From contig CABSMX010000001.1 of the NCBI GenBank assembly GCA_902478945.1, forward strand, positions 841 to 64,840: a DNA stretch of 64,000 nucleotides. The letters are read 5' to 3'. The position numbers and the translations under genes are program-made. A model generated the notes under the pieces. It did no database searches. It saw only the letters and a program-made list of their open reading frames with translations, and was not told where the DNA came from. Shown here piece after piece: positions 3,296 to 55,321 of this stretch (within the stretch, counting starts at the first letter, position 1; each line of letters opens with the position of its first letter). Origin of the DNA: an uncultured Collinsella sp. GTDB taxonomy: Bacteria > Actinomycetota > Coriobacteriia > Coriobacteriales > Coriobacteriaceae.

Positions 3296-3319
3296 TAAGT
3301 AGGAGGGGAGGGGCGCCAG

Positions 3320-4318
3320 ATGCGAAAAGACAAGAACGAGCAAAATGAAATCGCGAGGCCTGTTGGTAAGCACTTTGCGCAGGTAGATAATTCTAAGACA
3401 GAGCCTTGCTGCACGGAGTCGGCGACCCCTACTTCTAAAGTGCGCAAGCGCCTATGGACGGTTGCGGTGCTGCTATGCGCCGTCGCGATTGTGGCGGGTA
3501 CCTACCTTACCTACACGGCCTTTTTGGCGGGTGACTTTCTTAAGTCGGTCGCTGTCTCGGGCACGTCGCAGGCGCTGTTTGCTTCGGACATGCTCACGGG
3601 TTACACGAATGAGACGCTGAATGACGAGGGTATTGCCGTCCGAAGTGTCATCGCCGACACGAGTGGGGAAAACTGCTTCTTTACCTTTCGCATTTACAAC
3701 CATCTGCTGGGCGACAAGAACAAGGTCAACGACAAGGACGTTAACGCGACGCTGAGCGTGGAGGCGACGGGAACGACGGGCACTTGGAGTGTTAACGGTA
3801 AGCCCACGCTGACGGCGGGCGGCACGGTCGACCTTTCCTTCCCTGCCAACAAGGCAACTATGTATACCTATAAGGTTACGTTTTCCAAGGCGGACCTCAA
3901 CAAAGCATCCTTCACCGTTAAAGCCAAGGTCGGCTCCAATAGCCCCGGCACCAACCTTAAATGGCTCGCCGCCAAGATTGCGCCTTCCGAACGTGCAGAG
4001 GTGACGGCTTCGGGCGTTTCGGGCGAGTGGGTCGACAAGAACAAGGATGATACGAATGTCGGCGACTTCGACGCCTACAACTATCGTGTGACCGTTACGG
4101 GCGCTACGACTAAGGTAAAGCTCACGTGGGGAAGCGGGGTCGAGCTCGATCCGTTCTTTGAGGCGAACCACAAGAACGGTAATGGGCAAGCAGCCGTCAG
4201 CGGCAACTCGATCACATACGATGCATCTCCTGGCTCGGAAATCATCACCTTTTACCGGAAGGGTGATTCGAAGCCGACCAGCTGGGAAGCCATTGGCGTT
4301 TCGTGTTCGGCCGCGTAG
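3320..4318 (+). CDS. Signal-anchored secreted protein 3 of the giant-protein operon
   Basis: A strong RBS (AGGAGGGGAGGGG) sits upstream. The N-terminal cytoplasmic tail is followed by one helix (LWTVAVLLCAVAIVAGTYLTYTAFLAGDFLKSVAVSGTS). The ectodomain is beta-rich (TFRIYN, YTYKVTF, FTVKAKV, YRVTVTG, KVKLTWG). Confidence 0.6.
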   Translation: MRKDKNEQNEIARPVGKHFAQVDNSKTEPCCTESATPTSKVRKRLWTVAVLLCAVAIVAGTYLTYTAFLAGDFLKSVAVSGTSQALFASDMLTGYTNETLNDEGIAVRSVIADTSGENCFFTFRIYNHLLGDKNKVNDKDVNATLSVEATGTTGTWSVNGKPTLTAGGTVDLSFPANKATMYTYKVTFSKADLNKASFTVKAKVGSNSPGTNLKWLAAKIAPSERAEVTASGVSGEWVDKNKDDTNVGDFDAYNYRVTVTGATTKVKLTWGSGVELDPFFEANHKNGNGQAAVSGNSITYDASPGSEIITFYRKGDSKPTSWEAIGVSCSAA

Positions 4319-4393: not shown

Positions 4394-7300
4394 ATGAGAA
4401 CGGCAAAGCGCATAACAACCGCATGCCTGACTGCGATCATGATTTTCCAGGCGCTCGCGCCCTCCACAGAGGTGTTCGCGCAAGAGCTCGACACCGTTAT
4501 GGAGGCATCCGTCTCCGCCGCGCGCGCCGCGGGCAACACGGCGCGCTCCGTACAGGATGGCGTGGCCACCGCGCTGCAAGATGCTGACCAGGCTGCATCT
4601 GATGACGCCGCAACGACTCCGGGCGCCGACGCTGGCGCTACCGAGGGCGGCGACGGTTCTACCAACGCTGGCGAATCGCAGGACTCCACGACCGATGGAA
4701 CCACTAACGGCGATACCCCAACGGAGGGCGACGCGTCCCAAGATGATGCGGCTACCGATGAGGGCGCTGCTGACGAAGAACAAGCGGATGACGCGGACGC
4801 GGATGCTGCTGATCAGGCAGGCGCCAACTACCCCATCGCTACTGTCGAGGCTCTCAGGCACGCGTTGGGTGACGGCAATGTCATCACTGACGACTTGGGC
4901 GCCGTCACGGCCATTACCTTTGAGTCCAACGCCGACCTTATCGCCATCTCCAACACCGATCCCGCCATCTACCAGAACGCGAACATCTCCAAAGGTGGCT
5001 CGACCGGCATCGACTTCGACGTGTGCGGCGCGGAGATCGTGGACGGCTTGGGTAGCCTCACGTTCCAGGGCTTCGGCAGCGATGCCTACCCTTTCAAAGG
5101 CGCGCTCAACCTCGGCGACAGGACCCTGACCGTCAACAAGACGCTCTTCAACAACATCGAGCTCAGCGATGCCAACAGCACCGTAAAGCTCACCTGGAAG
5201 GGTACCGATGCCCAGCCCATCGTGGCCGCAAAGGTCACGGGCGCGGACAAGACGCTTGCTGCCACCGTTACCGTGGGCACGCCCAAGAGCGATACCGAAA
5301 AGGACATCTGCAAGCTCACCTCGCCGCTTGTGGGCGAGGTCACGGGCGCTCTCACGCTTAACGCCACCTACACGACAAGCGCGAACAGCCCCCTGGCAGT
5401 CGATATGCAATCGAGCGCAGGCAACATGGGCTTGCTTGTGAACACTCTTGCCGAAAAAGCATCGTTTACGCTTGCGGGCCTCGCCCTGCCGGACAACCTC
5501 GACGGTACGCCCACCATCAACGCGACAGCCGATGGCGCCAATGCAGGAGGCCTTATCGGCGAGGCGCAGGAGGGTGCCACCGTCGCCCTACCAACTGGCA
5601 TCGATGTCTCGGCGCTGAGCGTCGCAGGTAAAAACGCGGCGGGCGGTCTTATCGGTAAGGCGACTAAGCTCACGCTCACCGTGGGCAAGGATAACAGCGG
5701 AAAAGACGCCTCGGGCAAGGCTGTCGTCATCAAGCCCGCGCATGCGGTTGGATCGTCATCTGCCGGGACGTATGCAGGCGGCCTTATCGGCGACGCCTCG
5801 TTTGCCGACGCATTCACCATCAACAGCGGCATCTTCGACTTTGGCAAGGGCGTGGCGCTCAGTGTGTCCAACACGAGCGCTGCCCCTTCCGCCGGCGGAC
5901 TGTTCGGCGTGCTCGACATATCGAACGGCGACGCGGTCGTCAATGGCGGTTCGTATACAAGCACGCTGCAAAACGGCACGGACAACAGCAACAACAACGG
6001 CGTGCGCGGGAACTACGGCGGCTTGGTGGGCAAGCTGTGGGGGAAGAAGAACGGCGACGCGCTGCATGCCTTTACGGTGCAGGATGATACTGCGGTGTCG
6101 TTCGGCGTGGGCTCCAACGGCAAACTCACCTACGCGGGCGGCCTAGTAGGCTACCTTGGCGAAGGCGGCGGGAGTGCCAACGTGTCCGCCGTGGTCATCA
6201 GTGATGCAACAGTGACATGCTCAACCTCGGGCTACGCCAGTGCAAATGGCAAATACGGCGGCGCCGTGGGCGTCGTGGACACAAACAACGTTCTAGAAGT
6301 GCGCGGCCTGAAGGTCAAAACCGCCAGCGGCGCTAACATCGGCGGCACAAACGGCGGCTTTGCCGGAGTCGTTGGGTCGTCGTGGCTCGGCATCGTCAAG
6401 TTCAGCGGTATCACCGACCTGTCGGATGCCACCTTCGTGGAAAATGATCACACCGCGCAACTGATTTATGAGAACTTCAACTCGCTGATTTTTGCCGCCG
6501 GTAGCGGAAGCGATAGCGGCACCGCCGCAGGCGATACCATGAAATGGCAATATAAGCGCCCCTCTACGCCCGTCAAGATCGATGACGTGTACAGTTGCGG
6601 CCAAGTCATTCGCTTGGGCAACCCGTTGAGCGAGAACCTCATCTCCATCAACGAAGCGCACCGGTGGATCTTTAGCTCTAAGCTCGTAAAAACTGGCGAT
6701 GCATTTGCGCTGGCAAGTATCGACGATTTCGCAAAGCTGGCGATTACCTGGCAAACCAACGGCTACTACTCGATGGTTGACGGCGTTACCGAAAACAACC
6801 TTAACGGCTTGCAGTCCTTGACCATTACGGTGAGCGGCACTATTGATCTCAAGGGCACGGGCCTAACGGGTTTCACGCAGGATCGTGCAGACGGCTCGCA
6901 AGTTTTCTCGGGAACGTTGAACGGTGGCGGCACAAATGGCAACGGCACAATTAACCTTGCCGTCGGCGAGCCGTACGGCATGCGCGGTAAAGCTGTGCTC
7001 GACGGCAATGACACGAGCAACGGCAACGGCAAAATCTACCGCCACGGCCGCTTGGGCTTGTTCGCGGCCGTCAACGGCGCAACCATCTCCAACGTCACAA
7101 TCGCTGGCTCCATGAAGTTCGATAACGGTTCGGCTATCGATGCCGGGTCGCTTGCAGGTGCCATCGTCGGCAACCTGTCATTGTCTGGCGTAACGTGCAA
7201 AACGAATATCGCGTGTGATGATACGTTCAGCAACGAAGTGAACATTGGTGGTATTGCGGGCAGCGTGTCGGCGGCTTCTACGGTTGCGTTTGAGGGCGAC

Positions 7301-10300
7301 AGCAAGGCCCAGGCGACCATCACTAAAGCTCAAACGCTTAGCGGCAATATGCGCATTGGCGGCGCCATCGGCAATGTGGGCGACTATACCTCGACATTCA
7401 ATGTTACGCGCCTCGAAGTCGGCGGCAAAATCAAAACCGGCGATTGCGCCGGCGGCAAGATTGCCCAAGTCGGTGGCTTTATCGGCCGCATTGTGCAGGG
7501 ATCGAACGAGAAGCACGTTACCATTACCGGTCTTAGCTTTAGTGAATTCGCTATGACCGTGGGCAAGAACGGCGACAAGCTCAACGGCGCCGGTGGTCTT
7601 CTGGGCTACAGCTGGGGCAACGCCATCGTCACCATTGGCGATACTGCTGCGAATACCAGCGGCAGCGCCTACGCCCTCAAAACTTCCAACAACACGACCG
7701 TAACCGCAAATAGCTCTGCCGAGGTCGGCGGCCTCGTATACGCCGCCAGTGGCCACTGGATCGTCAATAATTATGCTATCAATTTGGCCAACGCTTCCTT
7801 CACCGCCAATAATGCAACCACGCTTGGCGTTCTTATTGCTCGCGGCGGTACATCCGATTCAAATAGCTTTGGTGCCGAGACCAACTATAACGGTCTATAT
7901 CTGGAGGACAGGGCTTCGTGGGACACCGCTTATGCTGTGAATGGCGTGTCTATAACCGCCCCAAAGGTAACGACATACGACGAATGGCTTGCAAATGGCG
8001 TGAAGCCCGAAAGCAATCTGATCGATAACGGCTGCAATGCGGTCGTCTCGCTTCATACCGAGGGCCAAAAGCTGGACATGAGCGGAAATCCCGCTAGAGA
8101 TAATAGTTATCAAAATCGCATTGCCCCCGCTAATTCTTCTGATGGCTTTCCACAATCAAATGGTTCTGTTCGCTACTACTACAATCTTGACAAAGCATAT
8201 GCGGAGGTAGGCAACAATCCGGAAAACGATAGCAAAGACAATTGGATGAACTCCGCAGAGTACTTATTACTTTGGTGTGCGTACCTGTATGCTCCTAGCG
8301 CGATTCAGGACTATATCATTCCGGGAAATCAGGCTATTTTCCAAGGAAACAATATTGGCACGAGCGACAGCGCGGGCGTGGAAATCAATTTAGATGGATA
8401 CAGTTTCTATCCTACTGACCCCGCGAAGGGCTCAACGGTTACTGTGAATAATGCAACGATTACGTTCCATTATTCCGACATTAAAGCTGAGCAAAAAGGT
8501 AACAAAAAGAATAGCGAAGCCACGCAGCACGAAAATATGCACTGCGCTCTCATCGGAACCCATACGGGCAGCCTCAAGGTTAAAAATGTCACGCTTGCAG
8601 GCACCGTGGGCTCTGTTGTGAACGATGAGGGAAGTTCGTCCGGCGCACTTGTGTGCCGCTGTATCTATGGACCCATCAATGAGACTAATGTGGCGCAGCT
8701 CGAGATAGATGGTCTGACACTCGACGGCTTGACGGTCGACGGTGTGAATGACGATACCAGTTACGCTCCTCTGCTTATCAACGAGATGCAGACATGCGTG
8801 AACCTGAGCGCTAAGAATATTTCAACCCGTAGCTACGCGAATGGGGCCACGGCGGCAACCTCGCTCTTCGGCAGACTCGGCGTGGGAAAAAATTCCGATC
8901 AGGTGACGGCGAAGTTTGAGCAAATCAGCTTGCCCAGCAAAAATAACGATACGATCTTCACCCATGCGAGCCTGCTGGAGAGTTTTGGCTACGGAAGCAC
9001 GAGCACGGGCTCTGCGGACTATACCTTTACTAAGGCCGAGGCCGATGCGGGCAAGGTGACATATGGAAGCGAAATCGATGCCAAGGACAAGGAATACTCT
9101 GGCAAGCAGCTTTGGTATTACGACAAAGAAACCTATGCCACCCCTAATGGCTTGGTGACGGTTGATAAAAAGCCGGCAGATGCCAAGAATCCTCGGTTTG
9201 GTGACTATCTTCCTTATGTTTACAAGGGAAAAGCCACCGAGGATGGCGTCCAGTATCACGAAATCAAGGTTAACCAGCGCATCCCTAACCTGATGACGGG
9301 ATGCGGTACGTATGGCGATCCGTACGCCGTTACGGACGCGACGGAAATGAACGCCATCGCTAACTACATCAACAACAGCGTGGCGTTGGATGGCTGGGAA
9401 GTCACTATTGCCGCCGATCAGTCCAGACTGTGCGAGCGGCGTAACAAAACGAAGATCGACAGCGCGAGGACCGACAACGAGGTCGTGTACGTCTATAAGC
9501 AGGCGAACGGTGCTGATAACAAATGGGAGAAGAAGAACGGCGATGCAACGACCGATCCCTCGCAGACGTTGAGCGACGAAACCATGCACCGCTATGTGCA
9601 GAGTGCGTATTACAGCATTGAGCCTCCTGAGGGCAATAAGATTACCGTCGATGCGGCCTCGTTTGGCGGATTTGGCAACAAGGCCAATCCGTTCCGTGGC
9701 GTAATTGTTGGCGACCTAGGCAAGTCAACTGCAGCAATTGAGATTGAAAATAACAAGGGCGAGCTTCGCGGTCTCATTCCCTATAGCTATGGCAGCGTGG
9801 TGCGCAATCTCAACATCAACTATGTGAATGCGCAGGCGACTATTACTTATTCTGATAAGGATGAGGACGGCGTTCCGACAGCGTTTTTCGGTGGCGTTAT
9901 CGGCTGCATTCTTGGCGGCGATAACATTATTGATGGCGTGGTCGTAAACAATCCAAATAACGGTTCGACAGCGTACGGCTTTACCGTTGTCAGCAACCCC
10001 GATGTCAGCAGATCGCATCTTGTTCCCATTGGCGGCTACGTTGGCGCTATTGCGGGTGGCGGCGTGATTTTCCGCCATACGGGCGATTCATGGCGTGGCG
10101 GCACAAAGGAAAAGTTCAAGCCCGTTGCGAAAGGCGGTGCCAACTCCCAACTGTACGACAACCCCTACGTTGGTCGTGTGATTGATGGCTATGCCTTTAG
10201 CGAGGGCTGTGCCGTAAAAAACGGCGATGCTAACTACAAGATTAACGAGCTCAAAGACAAGGGAACCCCCTGTGTCACCACCACGGGCACCGACAACAAG

Positions 10301-13300
10301 TACATCGGCACCAACGCTGAGGCGCCCGTGACTACGGTGGAAAACGCCCAGGGCCTTTTGGTGCTCTCGGCTATCATCAGCTCGGGTGCGGGCGCTGGCG
10401 CGGCGCAAACCGACTACGCCGATTATGGCGTGTTCCGCGGCTCCAAGGCGTACTGGGGCAACGACACGGAAGATCCGGCGATATGCGGCTATTTGTTTGG
10501 CAACAAGAACTATGGCAAGGTACGAAATGCCAACTACGACAGTGTGGGCAAGCCCGCGGGTGTCGCCAGCGATTTCGAAGCCGCCAAAAATGATGACCAG
10601 AAGGCTCCCGGTAAGCAGGGCTGGCACGGACCCCTCGACGCGGACAACGACGTGAACTCGCCCTACCTGGTGGCGTCTTATGCTGCCAACTACCAAACGG
10701 GCTACGTGTGCGCCTCGAAGTCGATTGGCATGAGCCTGGAGTTCAAACAGGGCGCCCCCTACGATATGACCGGTTACGGCACGGGATATGTGGGCCTTAA
10801 CGGCCGCTACTATTCCAATGCCTGCGACTCGAACGAGGCGACCACCGACCGCGACCGCATCACGCCGCACATAGCCACGATCGACGGTAACGGCGCCACC
10901 ATCACGGTGGGTACCGAAGACGCCGCCTACGGCGCCGTCGAATACGCCGACGACGACTATAAGGTCTCGGGCGTGGGTGGCCTATTCAGCACCGTGATGT
11001 TCACCTCCACCAATGTGGGGCAGAGCGTTACCGCGAACGACCGCGCGCAGGTCAAAGACCTCACCTTTAGCAACTGCAACGTAGCGCTCACCTATATCGA
11101 CACCAACGGCGAAGCCAAACCGGGACAGGCGACGAACGACCTTATCGGCACTGGTCTTTTGGCGGGCGCAACGGCCAACTACGACGTCTGGACGTGCGGC
11201 GTCTACCGCAACGTGCAGATGAAGAACTGCACCGTGTCGGGCGCTAAGAGCGTAGGAGGGCTTCTTGGCAGCTCGGGCCGCGCCAGCAGAAGTACGGACA
11301 GTGACGTGACCTATATGGTCAAATTCAGCTCCACGTGGGCACCCATGTATCTCTACGACTGCTCGTACACCGGTCTTAACGTCGCGGGCGAGAAGTACGT
11401 CGGCGGCTACGTGGGTACGGTCGCCTCGTCAAGCGGCGTGTGGACAACCGCGGCCAAAGGGATGAGCGAGAAGGCTGTTGGCGAAAGCTCGACCATAACC
11501 GCCACGGGGACAACGCCCTACGTGGGCGGTGTGATCGGCTTTGCCAAATCAAGTCATATCTCGGTCAACACCAACATCGGTGCCACAACAGCGGTCCCGT
11601 CGAGCACGGCAGTCATCTCTGGGGTGAATGTGCTTGCCACCGGGGAGAATACCGATAGGTATATGGGCGCCGGCGGCGTGGTCGGGCGCGTCGATGGCGG
11701 CGTTATTTCTATGAGCAACGTGCGCATTGATGCCGGGACCGGCACCAAGAACGCCGTCATCGGCGATGGTACCGGAAAGAACTTCAAAATCCGCAATGCG
11801 GGCGGACTGATTGGCGAGGTCACGAGCAGCGGCAGCCCTAACACGTACTGGTTCGAGGACTGCAACGTCAAGAACGTTAACATCGCCGGTACCGACCAAT
11901 GCTCGGGCGGGCTTATTGGCTACTACTTCAGCAATGTGAACATAACTTGCAACAACATCGCAATTGAGAACGCTGCGATCAATGGCAGCTGGAGCGGCGG
12001 TCTACTTGGCGCGATTAACAGCGGGTCCGATGTCATCAACGTCACCAACACAAAGGTTTCCAACACCACGTTTGGCGGAACATCCAACGGTGGCATCGCG
12101 GGCGACGGCCGCGGCCAGTTTCATCTGGTAAACGTGCTCATGGACAGCAATATCTATAAATCTGACGCTAAGCAGGGTGTGCTCTTGGGCGAGGTCGACA
12201 CAGGCGGCTATAGCCTTTCCGCAGCGGGCGTGGACGTAAAGCCCGGCAAGGGCAAGACCACGAGCGACCTGCCGCCGATGGTTTACACGACCAATACGGC
12301 CGCCGTTAACAAGAAAACCTACATCGCGTTCGGAGACTACAACGACAGGCTCGACGTACCCGGCAAGGACACCACGCTCTACGGTGCGGACGATACCGCT
12401 ACTACGGCTGCAAGCCCATACGTGACCACGAGCCCCGTGAGCACGCTGGCGGTGCGTGCCTCCAACGACGACACCACTGATCGCTATCTGTTTGGCGACG
12501 GTGTCGCCATTGACACCGCGACGACCATCCAGAGCGAGGCAGGCACCAGTGTTGCCGGCCGCTACACCTATACCAATATCGGCGGCATTAATGATGCCGG
12601 CGCGTACCAAAACACGAGCACCTATAGCGCGGACAGCCCAAGGCCCACTTTCAACACCAACAACGTTACATCGGACAAGAAGGCTGCAACCGACTTCCCT
12701 GTACTCATGATTCCCGGCAACGACACGACGACGGTCGAGAAGTATCTGAACATCGTGACTAACGGCGGCTTTTCCGATGCCCGTCGCCTCAACGGCAGCG
12801 CCAAGCACGTGACCGCCACCGCTGAGGTCTTCAATCTTGCCGATAACGGCGCCTTCGTCAAGGACGCAACCGCCTCGCAAACGCCCACGCTCAAGGTGCT
12901 CAACAACGGCACGAGCTCCATGGTTTTCCGCGCGAGTACCGACTGGGACAACGAGCGGGGCCGCTTCACGCTGCTCACGGTCACTTTTAGAGAGGCCGGC
13001 CAGAGCTATCGCGTGCAGGTGCCCATCATCGTTAAGCGCATGCTCGAGATCGACTTCACCGCCACCTACTCCGAGGGCGCGAACTTCAAGGCTGCCGACT
13101 TTGCGACTCAATACGACAATCACGTGCTTGTGAGCAGCGGCGATACCATGACCGGTTACCTTACCTGGACCTATGGCAGCGCCCGGGGTGAGGCGGTCGC
13201 TTACGGCTGGAACACGCTGCTCGAAGCCGGCGGCTCCATGGGCCCGCTCAACAAAAGCATCACCTTTGGTGCCACGCTGCCCAAGGGCACGCAGCTCACA

Positions 13301-15043
13301 CTCGTGGACACTGCAAACAACAACCGTGAATACCACTGCACGGTCGGCGCAGGCGGAGCAGCGTCGGTCAAGCTCACCGACTTTGTGGATGCCGGCAACA
13401 ATGCCTACGTCGAGCCATGGCTGAGTGAAACCGTGGGCGTGAAGGCCAAGGAGGATAAGGAAAACGGCGCTTGGGTCAAGCTCACCGATGACGAGGTTGC
13501 GAACAAGAGCCAGGTCGAGCTCGCGAAGACGGCTGGCGCCAAGGTTGATGGCGCGTACTACCGCGCGCGTACATCTTCCGACACGATGGGCACGTTCTAC
13601 ACCCTCTCCGTTGCCAAGGAAGAGCCCAAGAGTGAGAACTTCTACTTGGTGGTGCGCACGCCGGCGGGCTCTGCGGGTGTCAACGGCTACACCGCAACTA
13701 CGGTGGACACGAGCCTCAACGAGCACATCAACTACCTGCTGCGAGGCAAGAAAGCAGCCGACGGCAAGGCTGCCGAGGACGGGCACCAGAATACGCCCTC
13801 GACCTACAGCGTGACATCCAACTACACGCACGGCCTCATCGATAACAACAAGGACGGCATCAAACAGATGGAGCTTCACGATGTCACCTATCCGCTTACC
13901 ATGAAGGTAAGCGACACCGTGAAGTTCGACTCGAACCAGCAATACACGAGCTCAGACGAGCTGTACTACCAGCTGGATTCTTCGCTCGTGAACTACGAAG
14001 GCGGCAAGGCCGCGGGCGCGCATGGCTACCCGACCGGAACCCAGGGCACGTATTCGTTCTACGTGAAGGTGGGGGGCAAGTACTACACGTGGAATGGTTC
14101 TAAGTGGATTGATGCCGGCACGTCGCCAACGCCGGCTATTGCTGCCAAAGACTGGTCTGCAACGGGTGGCGACATGTCGCTTGTGCTTGCCGATGCCAGT
14201 GGCAAGGCCATCGACCTTTCCGGCATTCGCGAGATCGCTAAGAACCATGGCAGCGAGTTCACCATCACCATGGAGGCGAATCTCGCCATGACGGAGCCTG
14301 CGTGCCAGGCTGGTATTATCGCTTCGCAGAATGGCGGCACAGATAAGTACACAAAGCCCAACTACCGTGCGCACCTCTCTACGCATGCCGAAACGCTCAG
14401 CACCAGTAGCAACTCGGCATACATCGGCGGCATAGCTGGATACTACCGCATGGACGTGGGCTCCTCGACTATTGCGCTCGAGGCTTCAAAGAAGTCGCAG
14501 CTGGGCATCAACATCGATGACCTCAAGTCCGCCGACGGCGAAATCGCTTTGGTGGGAACGTATGATTTGTCCAAGCTCGCGGGTGCTGAGGCCATGATCT
14601 CCAATGCCAGCACGGTGACGTACACGCTGAGCTTGCAGAAGCGCCGCCAAGATGATGATCGTTATGATGCGGTCGACAACATCTCAAGCTACATTACGGT
14701 GCTCGGTAGCGACAAGTTGGCTAACGGCTCTTTGAGCGCCGATGGCAAGAATTACGTATTTACTGATAGCAAGGGGACTGGCGGCACGTTCGCCACGCGC
14801 GACGGCAACAGCCTTGCCTTTAAGCATGCCTTCCGCGTTAAGGTGAACACCGATGTTGAGGGCAAGGACCAAACTTATGCCAACTACCGCTTGGTGCTTA
14901 CGGCTCATATGTCCGGCGTCGGTGTCAACGACACGCCGGTTAACGTCAGCAGCCTCGCCGGCTATGCGAACTCCGACTACGTGACGTACACGCTAGCGCG
15001 CATCAACACCAAGGGCATTCCCCATGAGACGAAAACCAACTAG
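4394..15043 (+). CDS. Giant (3,549 aa) secreted GLUG-motif repeat protein with no recognisable cell-wall anchor
   Basis: A Sec-type signal peptide (MRTAKRITTACLTAIMIFQALAPSTEVFA/QE) is followed by an Asp/Ala/Thr-rich acidic spacer. There are many G-G-[LFV]-[IVAF]-G motifs (AGGLIGEA, AGGLIGKA, AGGLIGDA, AGGLFGV, YGGLVGK, AGGLVGY in the first block; VGGLLGS, VGGYVGT, VGGVIGF, AGGVVGR, AGGLIGE, SGGLIGY, SGGLLGA in a second block near nt 11250-12100). This is typical of the GLUG motif of large Gram-positive surface proteins. The C-terminus (..ARINTKGIPHETKTN) has no LPXTG or hydrophobic tail. Confidence 0.85.
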   Translation: MRTAKRITTACLTAIMIFQALAPSTEVFAQELDTVMEASVSAARAAGNTARSVQDGVATALQDADQAASDDAATTPGADAGATEGGDGSTNAGESQDSTTDGTTNGDTPTEGDASQDDAATDEGAADEEQADDADADAADQAGANYPIATVEALRHALGDGNVITDDLGAVTAITFESNADLIAISNTDPAIYQNANISKGGSTGIDFDVCGAEIVDGLGSLTFQGFGSDAYPFKGALNLGDRTLTVNKTLFNNIELSDANSTVKLTWKGTDAQPIVAAKVTGADKTLAATVTVGTPKSDTEKDICKLTSPLVGEVTGALTLNATYTTSANSPLAVDMQSSAGNMGLLVNTLAEKASFTLAGLALPDNLDGTPTINATADGANAGGLIGEAQEGATVALPTGIDVSALSVAGKNAAGGLIGKATKLTLTVGKDNSGKDASGKAVVIKPAHAVGSSSAGTYAGGLIGDASFADAFTINSGIFDFGKGVALSVSNTSAAPSAGGLFGVLDISNGDAVVNGGSYTSTLQNGTDNSNNNGVRGNYGGLVGKLWGKKNGDALHAFTVQDDTAVSFGVGSNGKLTYAGGLVGYLGEGGGSANVSAVVISDATVTCSTSGYASANGKYGGAVGVVDTNNVLEVRGLKVKTASGANIGGTNGGFAGVVGSSWLGIVKFSGITDLSDATFVENDHTAQLIYENFNSLIFAAGSGSDSGTAAGDTMKWQYKRPSTPVKIDDVYSCGQVIRLGNPLSENLISINEAHRWIFSSKLVKTGDAFALASIDDFAKLAITWQTNGYYSMVDGVTENNLNGLQSLTITVSGTIDLKGTGLTGFTQDRADGSQVFSGTLNGGGTNGNGTINLAVGEPYGMRGKAVLDGNDTSNGNGKIYRHGRLGLFAAVNGATISNVTIAGSMKFDNGSAIDAGSLAGAIVGNLSLSGVTCKTNIACDDTFSNEVNIGGIAGSVSAASTVAFEGDSKAQATITKAQTLSGNMRIGGAIGNVGDYTSTFNVTRLEVGGKIKTGDCAGGKIAQVGGFIGRIVQGSNEKHVTITGLSFSEFAMTVGKNGDKLNGAGGLLGYSWGNAIVTIGDTAANTSGSAYALKTSNNTTVTANSSAEVGGLVYAASGHWIVNNYAINLANASFTANNATTLGVLIARGGTSDSNSFGAETNYNGLYLEDRASWDTAYAVNGVSITAPKVTTYDEWLANGVKPESNLIDNGCNAVVSLHTEGQKLDMSGNPARDNSYQNRIAPANSSDGFPQSNGSVRYYYNLDKAYAEVGNNPENDSKDNWMNSAEYLLLWCAYLYAPSAIQDYIIPGNQAIFQGNNIGTSDSAGVEINLDGYSFYPTDPAKGSTVTVNNATITFHYSDIKAEQKGNKKNSEATQHENMHCALIGTHTGSLKVKNVTLAGTVGSVVNDEGSSSGALVCRCIYGPINETNVAQLEIDGLTLDGLTVDGVNDDTSYAPLLINEMQTCVNLSAKNISTRSYANGATAATSLFGRLGVGKNSDQVTAKFEQISLPSKNNDTIFTHASLLESFGYGSTSTGSADYTFTKAEADAGKVTYGSEIDAKDKEYSGKQLWYYDKETYATPNGLVTVDKKPADAKNPRFGDYLPYVYKGKATEDGVQYHEIKVNQRIPNLMTGCGTYGDPYAVTDATEMNAIANYINNSVALDGWEVTIAADQSRLCERRNKTKIDSARTDNEVVYVYKQANGADNKWEKKNGDATTDPSQTLSDETMHRYVQSAYYSIEPPEGNKITVDAASFGGFGNKANPFRGVIVGDLGKSTAAIEIENNKGELRGLIPYSYGSVVRNLNINYVNAQATITYSDKDEDGVPTAFFGGVIGCILGGDNIIDGVVVNNPNNGSTAYGFTVVSNPDVSRSHLVPIGGYVGAIAGGGVIFRHTGDSWRGGTKEKFKPVAKGGANSQLYDNPYVGRVIDGYAFSEGCAVKNGDANYKINELKDKGTPCVTTTGTDNKYIGTNAEAPVTTVENAQGLLVLSAIISSGAGAGAAQTDYADYGVFRGSKAYWGNDTEDPAICGYLFGNKNYGKVRNANYDSVGKPAGVASDFEAAKNDDQKAPGKQGWHGPLDADNDVNSPYLVASYAANYQTGYVCASKSIGMSLEFKQGAPYDMTGYGTGYVGLNGRYYSNACDSNEATTDRDRITPHIATIDGNGATITVGTEDAAYGAVEYADDDYKVSGVGGLFSTVMFTSTNVGQSVTANDRAQVKDLTFSNCNVALTYIDTNGEAKPGQATNDLIGTGLLAGATANYDVWTCGVYRNVQMKNCTVSGAKSVGGLLGSSGRASRSTDSDVTYMVKFSSTWAPMYLYDCSYTGLNVAGEKYVGGYVGTVASSSGVWTTAAKGMSEKAVGESSTITATGTTPYVGGVIGFAKSSHISVNTNIGATTAVPSSTAVISGVNVLATGENTDRYMGAGGVVGRVDGGVISMSNVRIDAGTGTKNAVIGDGTGKNFKIRNAGGLIGEVTSSGSPNTYWFEDCNVKNVNIAGTDQCSGGLIGYYFSNVNITCNNIAIENAAINGSWSGGLLGAINSGSDVINVTNTKVSNTTFGGTSNGGIAGDGRGQFHLVNVLMDSNIYKSDAKQGVLLGEVDTGGYSLSAAGVDVKPGKGKTTSDLPPMVYTTNTAAVNKKTYIAFGDYNDRLDVPGKDTTLYGADDTATTAASPYVTTSPVSTLAVRASNDDTTDRYLFGDGVAIDTATTIQSEAGTSVAGRYTYTNIGGINDAGAYQNTSTYSADSPRPTFNTNNVTSDKKAATDFPVLMIPGNDTTTVEKYLNIVTNGGFSDARRLNGSAKHVTATAEVFNLADNGAFVKDATASQTPTLKVLNNGTSSMVFRASTDWDNERGRFTLLTVTFREAGQSYRVQVPIIVKRMLEIDFTATYSEGANFKAADFATQYDNHVLVSSGDTMTGYLTWTYGSARGEAVAYGWNTLLEAGGSMGPLNKSITFGATLPKGTQLTLVDTANNNREYHCTVGAGGAASVKLTDFVDAGNNAYVEPWLSETVGVKAKEDKENGAWVKLTDDEVANKSQVELAKTAGAKVDGAYYRARTSSDTMGTFYTLSVAKEEPKSENFYLVVRTPAGSAGVNGYTATTVDTSLNEHINYLLRGKKAADGKAAEDGHQNTPSTYSVTSNYTHGLIDNNKDGIKQMELHDVTYPLTMKVSDTVKFDSNQQYTSSDELYYQLDSSLVNYEGGKAAGAHGYPTGTQGTYSFYVKVGGKYYTWNGSKWIDAGTSPTPAIAAKDWSATGGDMSLVLADASGKAIDLSGIREIAKNHGSEFTITMEANLAMTEPACQAGIIASQNGGTDKYTKPNYRAHLSTHAETLSTSSNSAYIGGIAGYYRMDVGSSTIALEASKKSQLGINIDDLKSADGEIALVGTYDLSKLAGAEAMISNASTVTYTLSLQKRRQDDDRYDAVDNISSYITVLGSDKLANGSLSADGKNYVFTDSKGTGGTFATRDGNSLAFKHAFRVKVNTDVEGKDQTYANYRLVLTAHMSGVGVNDTPVNVSSLAGYANSDYVTYTLARINTKGIPHETKTN

Positions 15044-15051
15044 CCACGCGA

Positions 15052-15087
15052 GGGGCGGCAACCACCCGGTTGCCGCCCTCTTTTCTT
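15052..15087 (+). terminator. Intrinsic terminator of the giant-protein operon
   Basis: GGGCGGCAAC-CACCCG-GTTGCCGCCC is followed by TCTTTTCTT, starting 9 nt after the stop codon. Confidence 0.8.
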
Positions 15088-15120
15088 GTTCGCCTGACCC
15101 GCTGCTGTCCCAGCTACCCA

Positions 15121-15217
15121 CCAACTTTCCAGCTTTCCACCCAACTTACCACCTAAGGTGGAAAGCTGGAAAGTTAAGTGGAAAGCTGGTAAGTTAGGTG
15201 GAAAGTTGGAAAGTTGG
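15121..15217. repeat. Composite TGGAAAG repeat module, upstream copy
   Basis: CCAACTTTCCAGCTTTCCAC / CCAACTTACCACC / TAA / GGTGGAAAGCTGGAAAGTTAA / GTGGAAAGCTGGTAAGTTAG / GTGGAAAGTTGGAAAGTTGG. That is two inverted and three direct ~20-bp units, with the TGGAAAG heptamer phased about every 10 bp. The module abuts the RBS of the 15228 gene. Confidence 0.9.
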
Positions 15218-15227
15218 GAGGTTCGGC

Positions 15228-16697
15228 ATGAATGAGGAGTGGTTGGCGCAGGTTATCCATCATCTGCGGGCAATAGGAAACGACACCCAGCAGTACGAAG
15301 TAAAAGAAGCCAAGGGCGCGCTCCCCAAAAGCATCGTCGAGACGCTTTCGGCATTTTCCAACGCGCAGGGCGGCTTTATCATCCTCGGCATTTCCGAAAA
15401 GAACGGGTTTATGCCCGTCGAGGGTTTTGATGCCCGCAAGATGCAAGACGCCCTCTCTTCTGCATGTGAAAAGCCGACGCCCGTTGTGAGGCCGGATATC
15501 CAAGTGCTCCCCTTCGAGGGTAAGCTGGTGCTTTGCGCGCGCATCAAAGAAATGCATCCACGCGATAAACCCTGCTATATTGCGGCACGCGGAATGTACG
15601 ATTCGTCCTTTATCCGTACGGGCGACGGCGACCGGCGCATGACTCCCTACGAAATCGATCGCTTTATGGAGGAGCATGTTCAGCCTACATACGACGACGA
15701 GCCGGTCGAAGGTGCCACGCTCGATGACCTTGACGCCGATCTTTTGCAAAGGTTTATAAAACGCCAGCGCGAGCTACACCCTAGGCTTTTGGGCACCAGA
15801 AGCGACGATGAGATTCTCCTTGATCTGCATGTGACCAAAAGGGTGGACGACGCAATCGTGCCGACGCTTGCTGCAATTGTCGCGATGGGACGGTTTCCGC
15901 AAAAGTTCTTCCCACGTCTCAATGTGACCTTTACGGCGTACCCCGGGACCACAAAAACGCAGCGAGTAAGTGATAACAAGCGTTTTGTGGATTCTCAGAC
16001 CATTTTGGGTCCGATCCCTTTCATGATTGAGGACGTGCTTGCCGCCGTTGCGAGAAACACCCGAAACGCAGCGGTTATCGAGGGCGCGTTCCGGAAAGAT
16101 GTGCCCGATTATCCGCCCGTGGCGCTGCGCGAGGCGGTGGCGAACGCGCTCATGCACCGCGACTACTCTTCCGCCGCGCGTGGCTCACAAGTGCAGGTCA
16201 ACCTGTATATCGACCGCGTCGAGATTCTCAATCCCGGCGGGCTGTACGGCGATGTAACGATCGATTTGCTGGGAGTTTCTGGGGTTCCGTCATCTAGAAA
16301 CCAGTTCCTTTCAAATATCCTCGAGACCACGCCGTACCCAGGCGGTGGCTACGTGGTCGAAAATCGCGGCACTGGTTATCAGGAAATAGGTGAGCAGCTC
16401 GAGCGGGCAAACATGCTGCCGCCCGAACCAAAGAACTCGACGGTTTCTTTTTCGCTGACGTTCGATAAGCGAAAGATAATGCGGGCGGAACAGGTGACAT
16501 CTGTGGGGCATGTGGACGAGGCAATCTTGGATTACCTGGCAACACATTCTTCGGCTTCGGCCAAGGAGCTCACCGACGCTTCGGGTTTGAGCAGGAGCGC
16601 CGTTTCCAACCACATAAAAGGCTTGATTGGTGCGGGCAAGATTGAGGCGATGGAGCCTCCGCGCAGCCCGCGACAGCGGTATCGACTCGCGAAGTAG
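15228..16697 (+). CDS. COG2865-type protein: AlbA_2 (Schlafen-like) DNA-binding domain + HATPase_c_4-like domain + C-terminal winged HTH
   Basis: The ATG at 15228 is preceded by GGGAGG. N-terminal YEVKEAKG..LSAFSNAQGGFIILGI is typical of the AlbA_2 domain. ALREAVANALMHRDY is typical of the HATPase_c_4 region. The C-terminus (ILDYLATHSSASAKELTDASGLSRSAVSNHIKGLIGAGKI) is a MarR/ArsR-like wHTH. Confidence 0.8.
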   Translation: MNEEWLAQVIHHLRAIGNDTQQYEVKEAKGALPKSIVETLSAFSNAQGGFIILGISEKNGFMPVEGFDARKMQDALSSACEKPTPVVRPDIQVLPFEGKLVLCARIKEMHPRDKPCYIAARGMYDSSFIRTGDGDRRMTPYEIDRFMEEHVQPTYDDEPVEGATLDDLDADLLQRFIKRQRELHPRLLGTRSDDEILLDLHVTKRVDDAIVPTLAAIVAMGRFPQKFFPRLNVTFTAYPGTTKTQRVSDNKRFVDSQTILGPIPFMIEDVLAAVARNTRNAAVIEGAFRKDVPDYPPVALREAVANALMHRDYSSAARGSQVQVNLYIDRVEILNPGGLYGDVTIDLLGVSGVPSSRNQFLSNILETTPYPGGGYVVENRGTGYQEIGEQLERANMLPPEPKNSTVSFSLTFDKRKIMRAEQVTSVGHVDEAILDYLATHSSASAKELTDASGLSRSAVSNHIKGLIGAGKIEAMEPPRSPRQRYRLAK

Positions 16698-16725
16698 GGC
16701 TGTCCGTCGCCCATGCTTCGGTCTC

Positions 16726-16825
16726 CCAACTTCTTTCCAGCTTTCCACTTAACTTACCACTTAAGGTGGAAAGCTGGAAAGTTAAGTGGAAAGCTGGAAA
16801 GTAAGTGGAAAGTTGACATGTTGGG
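16726..16825. repeat. Composite TGGAAAG repeat module, downstream copy (same orientation as 15121-15217)
   Basis: CCAACTTCTTTCCAGCTTTCCAC / TTAACTTACCAC / TTAAG / GTGGAAAGCTGGAAAGTTAA / GTGGAAAGCTGGAAAGTAA / GTGGAAAGTTGACATGTTGG. The architecture matches the upstream module. Confidence 0.9.
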
Positions 16826-17080
16826 TGCGGGCTGAAGAGGGGTTAATAATTGCACAAACCATACCAGCCAATCAAAAAGATACCAATCTGGTTGGTAAAA
16901 CACCGTCAATGAGCCGCGAGCCAACTAGCTGCGTAAATAAAACCTAAAGAACTGTTGCAAATGAATGGCAAATACCCAGATGCCGCCGTTGCGATTTTCA
17001 ATTAACTGTTACGCGGGAACAGCAAAATGCTACTATCTAACAAGCACGTAAGAAAGCAGATTAACGGTTAAGGCTAAGAA

Positions 17081-17485
17081 GTGGCAGGTATGTCGGAAGC
17101 AACTAGGACTCGCACGCATGCGCCCGAGGTTAGGCAGCGCGCCGTCGAGATCCTCCAAGAGGGGGTTGGTCACCGCGCCCTCGCCGCAAAGCTCGGCATT
17201 CCCCAGGCCACGGCTCGTCAGTGGGCCCGCGCATATGCCGTGGGCGGTGCCGACGCCGTGCTCAACGCGGGCGCTCGCCATCACACCTATTCGTACGACG
17301 TAAAGCTCGCCGTGGTTAAGGACCGTCTGGAAAACGGCCTGACGGTTCGCGAGGCCATGATCAAGCACAAGATCCCCAGCGAGTCTTCGGTCAAGGCTTG
17401 GTGCCGCCTGTACCGCGACGGCGGCGAGGCGGCGCTGGTCGATAAGCCGCGGGGTCGCAAGCCGCGCGTTAAAAAGGCGGAATAG
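17081..17485 (+). CDS. Orphan IS3-family OrfA-like helix-turn-helix protein
   Basis: APEVRQRAVEIL.. GIPQATARQWARAY.. and YSYDVKLAVVKDRLENGLTVREAMIKHKIPSESSVKAWCRLYRDGG resemble the double-HTH OrfA of IS3/IS150 elements. No OrfB/DDE gene or terminal inverted repeats follow. An alternative ATG start is at 17090. Confidence 0.6.
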   Translation: MAGMSEATRTRTHAPEVRQRAVEILQEGVGHRALAAKLGIPQATARQWARAYAVGGADAVLNAGARHHTYSYDVKLAVVKDRLENGLTVREAMIKHKIPSESSVKAWCRLYRDGGEAALVDKPRGRKPRVKKAE

Positions 17486-23994: not shown

Positions 23995-26900
23995 ATGAGT
24001 AGGTACACGAGGGGTCTCTTGGCGGTGATACTGGCCGTAGTGCTGGTGTTGCCGGCTGCAGCATTTGCCATGCTGCCCGAGGCCAACGCCAGGTCCAGTA
24101 CCGGAATGGACGGACCGAAAGCGACAAAGGTAGTCGACCACGACACCAGTAACCATTGGAAGTTCTGGGCGGGCGGCTATGACGGCAGTAAGGTCACGAC
24201 GCAAAACGTCGGCCGAATTTGGACGGATAAGACGGTCCAAGCAATCGATGACGGGAAATCGGACTTTTTGACCACGCTTTCGGCGATGTCTTCGACATCC
24301 GACACAACGTCGCTGGTTTCCAAGCCACTCGACATCGTGATGGTGCTCGATGCCTCTGGCTCAATGGATGATCCTATGGGTGGTGGAGATTCTACCAAGC
24401 GTATCGATGCGCTCAAGAATGCTGCCAACCACTTTATCGACACCATTGCCGAGCAAAACAAGAGCATTGAGGACGCGAGCAAGCAGCACCAGGTTGCCAT
24501 CGTTAAGTTTGCAGGAAAGAAGACTGACTGGATCGGCAATGACACCTATCGCGATGGCCGCTATAGCTACAACTACTCGCAGACGATGCAGAAGTTGACG
24601 GCGTGCTCGGGTGATGGCGCAATGAGCCTCAAGTACACGGTTAATTCCATCAAACCTGCCGGCGCCACGCAGGCTGATTACGGCCTTGAGCTTGCTCGCG
24701 ATATATCGGGCCGCAAGGATGCCCAAAAGATCGTCGTGTTCTTCACCGATGGCTCACCTACGAGCTCTCGTGATTTTGAGCCCGCGGTCGCTAGGGACGC
24801 CATCAATACCGCCAAGACCATAAAGAGCGGCGGGGCGACCATTTATACCATCGGTATCTTCAACGGTGCGAAGCCGGACGACGATCCAACAAGCAGCGAC
24901 ACGAGCAATAAGAATAAGTTCATGCATGCCGTGTCGAGTAACTATCCGGAGGCCACATCGTCCGTAAGCCATGGCCTTTTTGGAAAGAAGTGGAATGTCA
25001 ATTTTGGCAACCCCATTGCCAGTGCCAGCTACTACAAGTCGGCGACCAACGCCGCCGAGCTTGATCAGGTCTTTAAGGACATCTCGAGTGCTATTACGTC
25101 GGGCAAGGGTTTCCCGACCAAGGTCGAGGGCAACAATCCCAACGGTTCCGGCTACATCACATTCGAGGACGAGCTGGGCGCCTTCATGCAGGTCGATAGC
25201 TTTACCGGTGCCGAGTACAACGGCAAGACCTATGGTGCCGCCACCAAGTCGACCGATGGCAATATTGATACCTATACGTTTGACGGCGAGCTCGCCCATC
25301 TCGTAATTACGGTCGATCGCGCGGACAAGAACAATCCACAGCGCGGCGACATCGTGACGGTCAAGATTCCCGCATCGCTCATTCCGCTGCGCCGCTTTAC
25401 CGTTGACAAGTCGGCGGGTACGTTTGTGGTTGACTCCACGGATGCTATTTCGCCTATCCGCGTGGTGTATGCATCGAGCGTAAAGTCTATTGCGCGCGCG
25501 AATCTGTTTACTCCCAATAACGTACCGGGGCTGCAGGATTATATCGACAAGCACAAGGACGCCGATTCCAATACCGTCAGCTTCTACGCCAACAAGTGGA
25601 CCGGCGACGATGTGGGCGATACGGTCGCAAGCTTTGAGCCTGCCGCCACGAACGGCTACTACTACTTCCAAAAGTTGACGCCCGTCTATACGGACGCAGC
25701 CTGCACCAAGCTTGCAACTGAAAAGCCTTCGGGCTCTAAGACTTATTGGTACAAAGACGAGTTTATGGCGCAGAACTCGTCGGGCGCGCCGTACGATGAT
25801 TCCGTTTCGATCCCGGTTAAGGGAAGCGAGCTTGAAAGCTTTGAAGGCGCTTTGGTAAAGGATGGCGATCACTGGTCGATTAAGGCTGGCACCGCGCGCC
25901 TCGCCTTTATCAATCAGCTCCACACCACCAAGGAGCGTGTGGGCGGAAACCCGACGGACACCGCACGCGACGTGATCAATCCCCAGTGGAACAACACGAA
26001 GGTTGTTTCTGGTGCGACGAAGGTCAATGTCTACCTGGGCAATAACGGCAAGATTAGCTTTACGCTCAATACCACGCCGGCAACGGTGGATACCAAGGCC
26101 AGCTTTGGCCTGACCAAGGTGCTCGAGGGCCGCGAGTGGACGGGTACGGATGCGTTTGAGTTTGAGCTCTCCGCGACGTCCGACAACAATGCCCCGATGC
26201 CCGACCCTGCGACCGTAACTGTGACCAATGCCGATCTCGACAAAGGCAAGGCAGCCATCAACTTTGGCAAGATTACTTATGCCGAGCCGGGCAAGTACAC
26301 CTATGAGGTCCGCGAGAAGAACGCTGGTCAAACTATCGATGGCATCACCTACAGCAAGAACGTTGCGAAGATCACCGTGACGGTGACGCCCAACAAGAAG
26401 GGTGAGCTGAGCGCTGAGGTGAAGGTGGCTTGGAGCGAAGCCGACGTGACCGAGTTCAGGAACACCTACGCTACGAATCCTGTTGAGTCCAGCGTTACCG
26501 ACCAGATTGCCGTGACCAAGGTCCTGACCGGGCGCGACCTTACGGCCGGCGAGTTCAGCTTTGAGTTGCGCGAGGTTAAGGGCGAGGACTCTGAGCTTAT
26601 CGAGACCGTCAAGAACGCCGCCGATGGCAACGTTACGTTCAGCCCCATCAAGTACACCGAGATAGGTCAGCACACCTATACGCTGCACGAGATTAAGGGC
26701 AACGCCGGTGGTATTGCCTATGACAACACGGTTTACACCATCGTGACGACCATTGCCGACAACGACAAGGGCCAGCTGGTGGCTACGCACGAGCTGAAGG
26801 GCGCCGAGGGCGTCAAGAGCATTAAGTTCGAGAACGCCTACAATTTGACCCCCAAGAGCTTCAGCGTCACCGACAAGATCAAGGCGACCAAGTCCCTGGC

Positions 26901-54321: not shown

Positions 54322-55293
54322 ATGGCAGATAACGGCATTGTTGCGGTGTTCGGCAGTATGAACATGGACCTTTCGGTGGCGTGCGAGCGCATGCCGCGTG
54401 CGGGCGAGACCGTCGGCGGTAGCGGCTTTATCACCAATGCCGGCGGCAAGGGCGCCAACCAGGCTGTGGCAGCTGCGCGCATGGGCGCGCGCGCGTGCAT
54501 GATCGGCGCGGTCGGGCGCGATGCGTTTGGCGATGCGCTGGTGGCGGGACTTCAGGATGCCGGCGTGGGCGTTGAGCTCGTGGCGCATCGTGATGACGTG
54601 GAGACGGGAACGGCGACCATCATTCGCTGTGAGGGCGACAACCGCATCGTACTGTCACCGGGCGCCAACCATGCGCTTGCGGGCGAGGACGTTGCCCGCG
54701 CGCTGAGGCGTCTGGTGGCCGATGAGCTCGACGGCGATGCCAGCGAGATCGCTCCGGCTGCCGGAAGCGTCTTTATCGCCCAGGGCGAATGTGACCTTGC
54801 GGCGACGGCCGAGGCGCTTGTTTGCGCTCACGAGCTGGGGTTCTATACGGTCTTTAATCCAGCGCCTGTCTGCGAGTTGCCTGCGGGTGCGTGGTCCGCA
54901 GTCGACCTGGTCTGTCCCAACGAGACCGAATGCCAGGCGCTGACGGGCATTCTGCCCGCGGATGACGCGAGTTGTGCCGAAGCGCTTAATGCCCTGCTCG
55001 GCAAAGGCGCTGGTGCCGCGGTCATCACGCTGGGCGGTGCCGGTTCGGTTACGCTTGGTGATGATGGCGAGCTGCTGCGCATACCGGCGCTTTCGAGCTC
55101 GGTGGTCGATACCACGGCGGCCGGCGATACGTTTATCGGCGCACTTGCAGCTGCCCGTCTGGAGGGCCTGCCGCTCTTTGAGTGCATGGCCGCGGGCGCT
55201 CGCGCCTCGGCGGTGACGGTGTCGCGCTTGGGTGCTCAGCAATCGATTCCCACGCGTGCCGAAGTTGAGCGCGTGTTTGATTTAGACGATTAA
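54322..55293 (+). CDS. rbsK: Ribokinase (PfkB family)
   Basis: [26 protein letters not shown] and the C-terminal [14 protein letters not shown] anion-hole motif are present. GAGGAGG lies upstream of the ATG. Confidence 0.8.
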
Positions 55294-55321
55294 GTACAAG
55301 ACGGAGAAGCGGAGTAGAACA

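Follow-up and report, generated by a model that had tools for sequence, protein, structure and literature searches.

Why would a single bacterial gene be enclosed by two copies of one and the same repeat array? The question is raised by a 64-kb window (by which we mean the whole stretch analysed here, 64,000 nucleotides of an uncultured Collinsella sp., contig CABSMX010000001.1), where direct reading of positions 14800-17300 reveals two composite modules, in the same orientation, on the flanks of the open reading frame (ORF) 15228-16697. This ORF encodes a COG2865 protein that joins a Schlafen/AlbA_2 domain, a GHKL ATPase and a winged helix-turn-helix (wHTH), and the upstream (U) and downstream (D) modules are built from TGGAAAG-like heptamers. 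Comparison with relatives leads us to regard it as probable that both arrays are cognate operators of the encoded wHTH protein, serving autorepression and possibly DNA looping, and that the same arrangement makes for recurrent deletion of the gene.

Each module consists of a left arm of inverted and a longer right arm of direct heptamers around a short centre (coordinates of all features in Table 1), and both are found where a preliminary description of this DNA had seen the same composite structure in the same orientation. A repeat finder paired 15117-15197 with 16725-16805 as an 81-nt repeat family, 90% identical and free of gaps, and detected inverted arms with perfect stems of 16-19 nt inside each module. 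Described beforehand as near-identical and ~100 bp long, the modules are near-identical over these 81 nt, but not at their right ends, which are not equivalent; the duplication itself stands, its extent being somewhat greater, with an alignment of 34 distinct Collinsella variants placing the duplicated segment between GCTGYCC and GTTGGG. The 17-mer GTGGAAAGCTGGAAAGT, with up to three mismatches allowed, matches seven times in the window, always within U or D, against 0.08 matches expected; none of 100 shuffles reached this count. The heptamers do not recur about every 10 bp, as had been proposed, but at spacings that alternate between 8 and 12 bp, giving a 20-bp unit (GTGGAAAGCTGGAAAGTTAA); in most relatives the period is 11-12 bp. 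Upstream of the gene, they start 104, 96 and 84 nt (left arm) and 69, 61, 49, 41, 29 and 21 nt (right arm) before the ATG. The number of units is variable in both U and D, ranging from 2 to 5 among the Collinsella variants. That U ends at the ribosome-binding site (RBS) of the gene was seen correctly: it runs into the GGGAGG, and D starts 1 nt past the stop codon.

Does the array accompany the gene elsewhere? Scanning metagenomes with 16 aligned homologues returned 80 loci at 48-99% identity, and upstream and downstream flanks were aligned locally with each other to detect bracketing pairs. Homologues at 75%, 69% and 65% identity (L131, L133 and L137) reside in differing contexts—near HSP20, between Rce1-like and Na/H exchanger genes, and between DnaJ-like and BipA genes—and each has its own bracketing pair of the same anatomy. 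Further pairs were found in Paratractidigestivibacter faecalis (L162/L165), in Bifidobacterium (L168-L170, L172), at L166/L167, L176, L177, L180/L185 and L189 and, weakly, at L190, L191 and L201, amounting to about a dozen lineages with a near-identical second copy after the stop codon. In these bracketed lineages, the similarity of U and D is limited to the array and has sharp borders, U ends 14-72 nt ahead of the start codon, and D begins 1-110 nt past the stop codon. Most of the remaining homologues (48-54% identity) possess an array upstream only, sometimes two arrays ~100 nt apart. In 16 of 27 upstream and 9 of 27 downstream flanks, a canonical 7-mer is repeated four or more times per 170 nt, as compared to 4 of 763 other windows of the same loci. 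The arrays found at COG2865 homologues in unrelated contexts (48-75% identity), inverted-plus-direct in layout and placed shortly ahead of the start codon, show that the module goes with this gene family, a point on which the preliminary description had advised a check.

As the compared sequences further indicate, motifs differ from lineage to lineage and follow the HTH more closely than they follow the remainder of the protein. The arrays are made of lineage-specific motifs, GTGGTAAGT and TGTAGTGTT among them. TGGAAAG goes with the helices SNHIKG, SNHVKK and SSHIKK, TGTTAAGTT plus GCGAAGTT (one motif pair) with TSHVRS or TSHLRT, TGTAG(A)GTGTT with RRIINEL or RRILQEL, and GAATAAGTG with KYIRQ; other helices are found with GTTGAGAG, TAGTCAAATAG, GCTTTCAT, CTAGTTA or TTGGACAG. 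Over 23 lineages, the similarity of array 6-mer spectra was correlated with the identity of the HTH segment (Mantel r = 0.42, p = 2e-4, a correlation confounded by shared ancestry). It remained so with the rest of the protein held constant (partial Mantel r = 0.26, p = 2e-4), the reverse partial correlation being weaker (r = 0.16, p = 0.01). As would be expected of an operator, the sequence of the sites co-varies with the DNA-reading part of the protein, L202 and L207 being exceptions. The Paratractidigestivibacter protein illustrates the point: it is 72% identical to the window protein, yet has a different helix and a different motif, and shares both with Bifidobacterium proteins that are only ~63% identical to it.

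From where would the gene be transcribed? Just 14 nt separate the last U heptamer from the ATG, and upstream lies the intrinsic terminator of the preceding 3549-aa gene, which is conserved in empty and occupied loci alike, marks the left limit of the unit and makes read-through from that gene unlikely. Given this terminator and the short distance to the ATG, the promoter must overlap the U array. The obvious candidate, judged by its sequence, is TGGAAA-N17-TAAGTT, which recurs at a constant distance from the start codon in 33 of 34 distinct Collinsella U modules and in none of 34 D modules or 30 solo modules (those at loci lacking the gene). The array sites are hence placed next to or over the putative promoter of the regulator's own gene, as in autoregulatory operators.

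How is the bracketed gene distributed? An exact scan for GTGGAAAGCTGGAAAGT in one genome per species (185,579 species) yielded at least 119 loci. Among the matches listed, all those in Collinsella/Coriobacteriaceae fall at one locus, ordered as giant surface-protein gene, module, gene and second module (if present), 131-aa double-HTH gene and hydrogenase operon, and the others are single, chance-like matches in unrelated phyla, devoid of a heptamer cluster. A generic dispersed repeat, the possibility raised beforehand as one that would undo a link to the gene, is not what these matches look like; with two copies in the window and a single Collinsella locus among the matches listed, repetitive extragenic palindromes and bacterial interspersed mosaic elements (REP/BIME) are ruled out, as are miniature inverted-repeat transposable elements (MITEs).

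Among species representatives, the gene sits between two modules in at least 25 species and is missing next to a single module in at least 48, all Collinsella, with at least nine ambiguous cases; empty sites with one module, which the preliminary description had advised looking for, thus do exist. In most of them the intergenic distance is ~390-450 nt, as opposed to ~2040 nt in occupied sites, and they retain the flanks to the left of U and to the right of D. Solo modules of the L067 type join the U-specific variant unit GGGTAGAAAG and a U-type centre to the D-specific right end GGAAGACTGACATGCTAGC; by these diagnostic stretches they are U/D chimeras, as expected of recombination between U and D. 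At least nine changes between occupied and empty are called for by a neighbour-joining tree built from 1.85 kb of adjacent sequence at 67 loci. The gene is 94-100% identical across Collinsella, with identity dropping as the flanks diverge, and its position is constant. Both observations are more in line with vertical descent and many losses than with transfer. The earlier suggestion that the ~100-bp direct repeats render the gene deletable is therefore supported as an evolutionary process by the numbers of empty and occupied sites, the state changes and the chimeric solo modules. Transposition was considered separately and rejected: when the flanks of all near-identical copies were compared, they disagreed only where contigs were short or where allelic classes of the giant gene differed. 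Nor does the locus resemble a transposon or insertion sequence (IS), as the protein has no recombinase or transposase domain and the gene keeps to a constant Collinsella site.

What, then, might the arrays do? According to the operator reading, the C-terminal wHTH of the enclosed protein would bind its putative sites in both arrays and, with U overlapping the putative promoter, most likely repress its own synthesis. A symmetric, cooperative multimer could be held by the two arms, inverted on the left and direct on the right, with nine sites available in U and eight in D. As a second operator without a promoter, D would most likely cooperate with U, whether the 1.6-kb gene is looped out between them or D serves as a further loading platform or roadblock. 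Since the homologous GHKL domain of SLFN-pAgo (pAgo, prokaryotic Argonaute) tetramerises with ATP, bridging of two DNA-bound dimers, and with it looping between U and D, appears plausible. Recombination between the ~100-bp direct repeats would delete the gene and leave one chimeric array, an event that seems to have been repeated in Collinsella. That the arrays are operators of the enclosed protein had been offered as one of several readings, and comparison speaks for it through the occurrence in the family, the co-variation with the HTH and the overlap with the putative promoter; physical binding and repression are what we infer from it.

Several observations weigh against this operator reading. 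About half of the lineages lack a downstream copy, which can therefore not be essential to the family. Solo arrays keep 2-7 intact heptamers in species devoid of the gene, that is, the array persists without a local protein to bind it. The near-identity of U and D within a locus (90-98%), which includes the order of variant units, exceeds what shared specificity would need and suggests that gene conversion or a recombination cycle has acted in addition to it. A generic sigma-70 scan called no promoter in the module, the candidate being a sequence match. Helix and motif are imperfectly correlated, with L202 and L207 combining the motif GTGGGAAG with a quite different helix, and the shared ancestry behind the Mantel correlation counts here as well.

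Which known systems come closest? In phage lambda, the gene of the CI regulator is situated between the OL and OR operator arrays, one of which covers its own promoter, and CI binds as cooperative multimers. The Collinsella locus is similar in that a regulator gene is placed between two arrays of its own putative operators, a few kb apart at most, one of them over the putative promoter, and in that cooperative multimers could bridge the arrays by looping. It differs from lambda in having 8-9 sites per array in an inverted-plus-direct layout, in the near-identical ~100-bp direct repeats set tight against the ORF, and in a protein with nuclease-like and ATPase domains; looping, moreover, is something that we only infer here. 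In plasmids P1 (incC-repA-incA) and F, iteron arrays flank the gene of a winged-helix initiator, and the upstream array overlaps the promoter and mediates autoregulation. Bracketing of a winged-helix protein gene by two arrays of ~20-bp repeats is common to both cases; unlike the plasmid loci, ours is chromosomal, shows no Rep fold, origin features or plasmid association, and contains palindromic composites instead of purely direct iterons. For the losses, the parallel is the formation of solo long terminal repeats (LTRs), in which the direct repeats on either side recombine, so that the internal gene is lost and a single chimeric repeat stays behind. Here, too, occupied and solo states coexist among relatives, with the difference that a retroelement is absent, that nothing points to transposition into new sites, and that the repeats are probable operator arrays. 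Finally, the ribbon-helix-helix protein omega of pSM19035 binds cooperatively to contiguous short sites (7-bp heptads) in mixed orientation. The many contiguous short sites of mixed orientation in Collinsella resemble those of omega and AspA and suggest a nucleoprotein filament, the differences from omega being the DNA-binding fold, the period (8/12 or 11-12 bp) and a much larger protein with enzymatic domains.

Table 1. Coordinates of the bracketed gene, its two modules and neighbouring features in the window, with the array pairs of three homologues
Feature	Position	Strand	Remarks
Upstream module (U), duplicated segment	15104-15219	+	3 inverted and 6 direct heptamers
U inverted heptamers (n = 3)	15125-15151		
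U centre CCACCTAAGGTGG (CCACC-TAA-GGTGG)	15149-15161		
U direct heptamers TGGAAAG/TGGTAAG (n = 6)	15160-15213		spacing alternately 8 and 12 bp
Promoter-like element TGGAAA (15167-15172) - N17 - TAAGTT (15190-15195)	15167-15195	+	candidate; in right arm of U, ends 32 nt before ATG
RBS GGGAGG	15216-15221	+	formed by right end of U; invariant across all U modules
Schlafen/AlbA_2 - GHKL ATPase - winged-HTH gene, 489 aa	15228-16697	+	COG2865; 'Schlatpase' with C-terminal HTH
Downstream module (D)	16698-16827	+	3 inverted and 5 direct heptamers; without promoter-like element
D inverted heptamers (n = 3)	16733-16759		
D centre CCACTTAAGGTGG (CCAC-TTAA-GGTGG)	16757-16769		
D direct heptamers (n = 5)	16767-16812		
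Intrinsic terminator of upstream 3549-aa gene	15052-15079	+	12-bp stem with 9 GC pairs, then T run
AT-rich conserved leader/promoter region of next gene	16835-17089	+	includes GGGGTTAATAATT and extended -10-like TGCTACTAT (17028-17036)
131-aa double-HTH protein (IS3 OrfA-like, no catalytic domain)	17090-17485	+	hydrogenase operon next
L131 array pair	upstream copy 3869-3965; downstream copy 5503-5599		98% identical
L137 array pair	upstream copy 3855-3945; downstream copy 5502-5592		96% identical
L133 array pair	upstream copy 3909-3978; downstream copy about 5495-5564		

What kind of protein is encoded between the arrays? An N-terminal SLFN_AlbA_2 domain (PF04326; E 1.2e-14, residues 20-139) is followed by a GHKL-type HATPase_c_4 domain (PF13749; E 2.9e-20, residues 319-412) and a C-terminal winged HTH (residues 430-480) that matches HTH_24, HTH_IclR, MarR_2 and HTH_5. 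Sequence and fold matches in the PDB are to the uncharacterised DIP2311 (3LMM), to 2KYY, to the N-domains of SLFN13 and SLFN11, and to ArsR/MarR-type wHTH proteins, with a weak fold match of the wHTH to the centromere-binding AspA. An AlphaFold2 model built from 16 sequences, with a mean predicted local distance difference test (pLDDT) score of 66.6 (30-60 in the ATPase part, 79-89 in the wHTH), serves for domain identities only. The pair of SLFN_AlbA_2 domain and GHKL ATPase has been named 'Schlatpase' in a survey of 60,692 SLFN+GHKL proteins, the majority of which are small, some with a short C-terminal HTH (bioRxiv 10.64898/2026.05.29.728809). In Argonaute-fused members, the SLFN domain is a tRNA nuclease with the motif E(x)4(D/E)xK and the box SAFAN, the binding of ATP to the GHKL domain brings about tetramerisation of SLFN-pAgo, and the system causes abortive infection (bioRxiv 10.64898/2026.05.29.728809).

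The window protein has the same two Pfam domains in the same order, and nuclease motif, Schlafen box and GHKL residues are conserved. The nuclease motif reads D19-TQQY-E24-V-K26, with D replacing the first E, and the Schlafen box S41-A-F-S-N45; D19, E24, K26, S41, A42, F43 and N45, like the GHKL residues E302, N306 and N335-P-G-G, do not vary among 16 homologues with identities as low as 50%. Unlike SLFN-pAgo, the protein has no Argonaute sensor and ends in a winged HTH, and the loci studied here lie outside defence islands. Activity as an RNase, tetramerisation driven by ATP and a role in defence are known for SLFN-pAgo, and the preprint is silent on cognate flanking DNA repeats (bioRxiv 10.64898/2026.05.29.728809). 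In the literature on COG2865, AlbA_2/HATPase_c_4 and Schlatpases we found no paper describing flanking repeats. PADLOC identified no defence system for the 489-aa protein, and membership in one was discarded as a candidate: the matches were to pAgo-associated models, which share SLFN and GHKL, and to Csa3/CARF models, which share the HTH. Of 51 fully covered gene copies, six have a disrupted reading frame, several of these on low-coverage contigs.

Could the arrays do more than regulate? Possibly, though we are doubtful, they also are a scaffold that stores the nuclease/GHKL protein as an inactive, site-bound multimer, to be released by a trigger for RNA cleavage. The trigger, acting by release or by ATP-driven re-assembly, might be a factor from a phage, a shift in ATP or lost DNA integrity. 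If true, this would make the locus a one-gene, DNA-licensed counterpart of the RNA-guided filament/tetramer switch of SLFN-pAgo, and the bracket would also ease the loss of a toxic gene. The operator reading has consequences of its own. COG2865/'Schlatpase' proteins exist in tens of thousands, and the small HTH-bearing majority is without known ligand or function; assigning, lineage by lineage, a predicted DNA target beside the protein's own gene would render an uncharacterised family directly testable and give a handle on how a bacterial Schlafen-type nuclease is kept in check. The Collinsella locus would also be a clean natural case of regulatory direct repeats that make a gene recurrently deletable, explaining its presence/absence polymorphism throughout Collinsella, an abundant gut genus.

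Instead of being operators, the palindromic modules might be att- or lox-like sites with a crossover at the centre (TAA), from which a site-specific, excisable and re-integrating cassette, a 1.6-kb unit of the gene and one module, would be released in circular form and be able to rejoin a solo module, through the encoded protein or a host recombinase. Much about the locus would suit such a cassette: the gene's presence or absence among species, with one module remaining and at least nine changes of state, isolated occupied loci inside otherwise empty clades, an ORF that exactly fills the space between the repeats (D follows 1 nt past the stop), the sharp borders of the duplicated segment, and modules that are 90-98% identical within a locus and fully divergent between lineages. 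We nonetheless consider it unlikely. Domain searches found no signatures of a recombinase, transposase, Rep or ParB in the protein, and there is no recombinase gene inside the bracket. More than 70 Collinsella copies all occupy one chromosomal position among the matches listed, the divergence of the gene tracks that of its flanks in the manner of vertical descent with losses, and about half of the family has an upstream array only. The family is nearly absent from plasmids and phages, the only associations being four distant plasmid matches and five small, unannotated 'Bacteriophage sp.' contigs. For the losses themselves, ordinary recombination between 100-bp direct repeats suffices. An integron cassette with attC sites does not describe the locus either: the bracket is flanked by the giant surface-protein and double-HTH genes, the wider window not having been scanned for an integrase, and the cargo is always one gene family, unlike the varied cargo of attC cassettes.

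Do the modules act as RNA? Upon single-strand folding, U forms a long hairpin (z = -7.8) and D a hairpin (z = -7.5), and all modules fold well beyond shuffled controls (z from -4.6 to -12.9). D might thus be a 3′ stem-loop that stabilises or ends the mRNA and U a 5′ structure, with their similarity a by-product of duplication, a possibility in keeping with the position of D shortly past the stop codon in every bracketed lineage. Against it, no U-tract follows D, and a promoter within the right arm of U would yield an mRNA whose 5′ end is missing the left arm and could not fold into the hairpin. Nor would an RNA structure need units of 8-12 nt with a fixed motif or the unpaired extra direct units (six direct versus three inverted in U), or be expected to co-vary in motif with the HTH. 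Overall, we judge an RNA function quite improbable. Known RNA families were excluded separately, an Rfam search of the modules returning generic matches to microRNA precursors (hairpins) only, all below threshold.

The module could, in principle, belong to its right-hand neighbour. In Collinsella, it is always ~270 nt upstream of the double-HTH gene, with the COG2865 gene present or not, and the two HTH motifs of the IS3-OrfA-like protein would fit a 20-bp unit of two half-sites; on this account the module would be a regulatory array of the double-HTH gene and hydrogenase operon, into which the COG2865 gene was merely inserted. Homologues of the double-HTH protein at 71-77% identity make this very unlikely: they have no array at L124 (before the same hydrogenase genes), at L126 (before an ABC transporter) or at L129 (stand-alone), and all three loci share the AT-rich promoter region (GGGGTTAATAATT; AATGCTACTATCTAAC). 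Conversely, COG2865 homologues have arrays in contexts without a double-HTH gene. We consider a tie of the module to the double-HTH gene refuted by these two sets of loci.

Hardly credible, lastly, is an iteron-type replication or partition element with arrays around an initiator-like gene beside an AT-rich unwinding region, as had been suggested for the stretch at 16826-17080: despite the formal likeness to the arrays flanking rep in P1 and F, the AT-rich stretch downstream of D and the weak fold match to AspA, the locus is chromosomal and lies between core genes in more than 70 species, plasmid matches are few and distant, the protein has no Rep or ParB domain that we could find, other bracketed loci have no AT-rich stretch beside D, and the stretch itself is the next gene's conserved promoter region, present in all Collinsella loci and in the array-less outgroup L124.

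Some observations concern the neighbourhood of the bracket. The double-HTH motifs of the 131-aa protein, which is also seen at L123, L124, L126 and L129, are of the N-terminal type of IS3/IS481/IS630 transposases, and the protein looks like a domesticated transposase DNA-binding domain that serves as a regulator. With 91-100% conservation, it invariably stands ahead of a fused Proton_antipo_M+NADHdh gene and NiFe-hydrogenase genes; its homologues at 71-77% identity precede other operons and share the extended -10-like TGCTACTAT. Downstream of the hydrogenase operon, a 1965-aa ORF (23995-29892) contains VWA and FctA (pilin-type) domains, and a similar gene adjoins the double-HTH homologue in L129.

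On the other side, the 3549-aa ORF (4394-15043) has no Pfam family on record, and its C-terminal 400 residues fall into discrete allelic classes (42-47%, 66-91% and 100%) among Collinsella species at the same locus. In other species, the stretch from this giant gene to the module is a hot spot of insertion (L067 ~85-295, L078 ~85-290, L068 ~60-1260, L005 ~70-640), with inserts that include a ~275-nt MITE-like element with terminal inverted repeats CTGGACAGTTAGTTCAGATACGTAT, a ~1.2-kb element with CTGGACAGTTAGTTCAGATACGTAT ends and a 245-aa minus-strand ORF, and a TnpA fragment of the IS200/IS605 type. One locus labelled Treponemataceae (L012, CAVCKO010000036.1) contains a complete Collinsella-type arrangement (gene 94.7% identical, both modules, double-HTH gene) and is probably mis-binned. 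At L131, the interval from a giant gene to the COG2865 homologue (2292-3732) holds three diverged tandem copies, spaced ~360 and 781 nt apart and 66-84% identical, each with a hairpin and a small minus-strand ORF. Finally, the cumulative GC skew of the window peaks near 55-56 kb and then declines, and this peak (~55000-56000) may mark a switch of replication strand bias.

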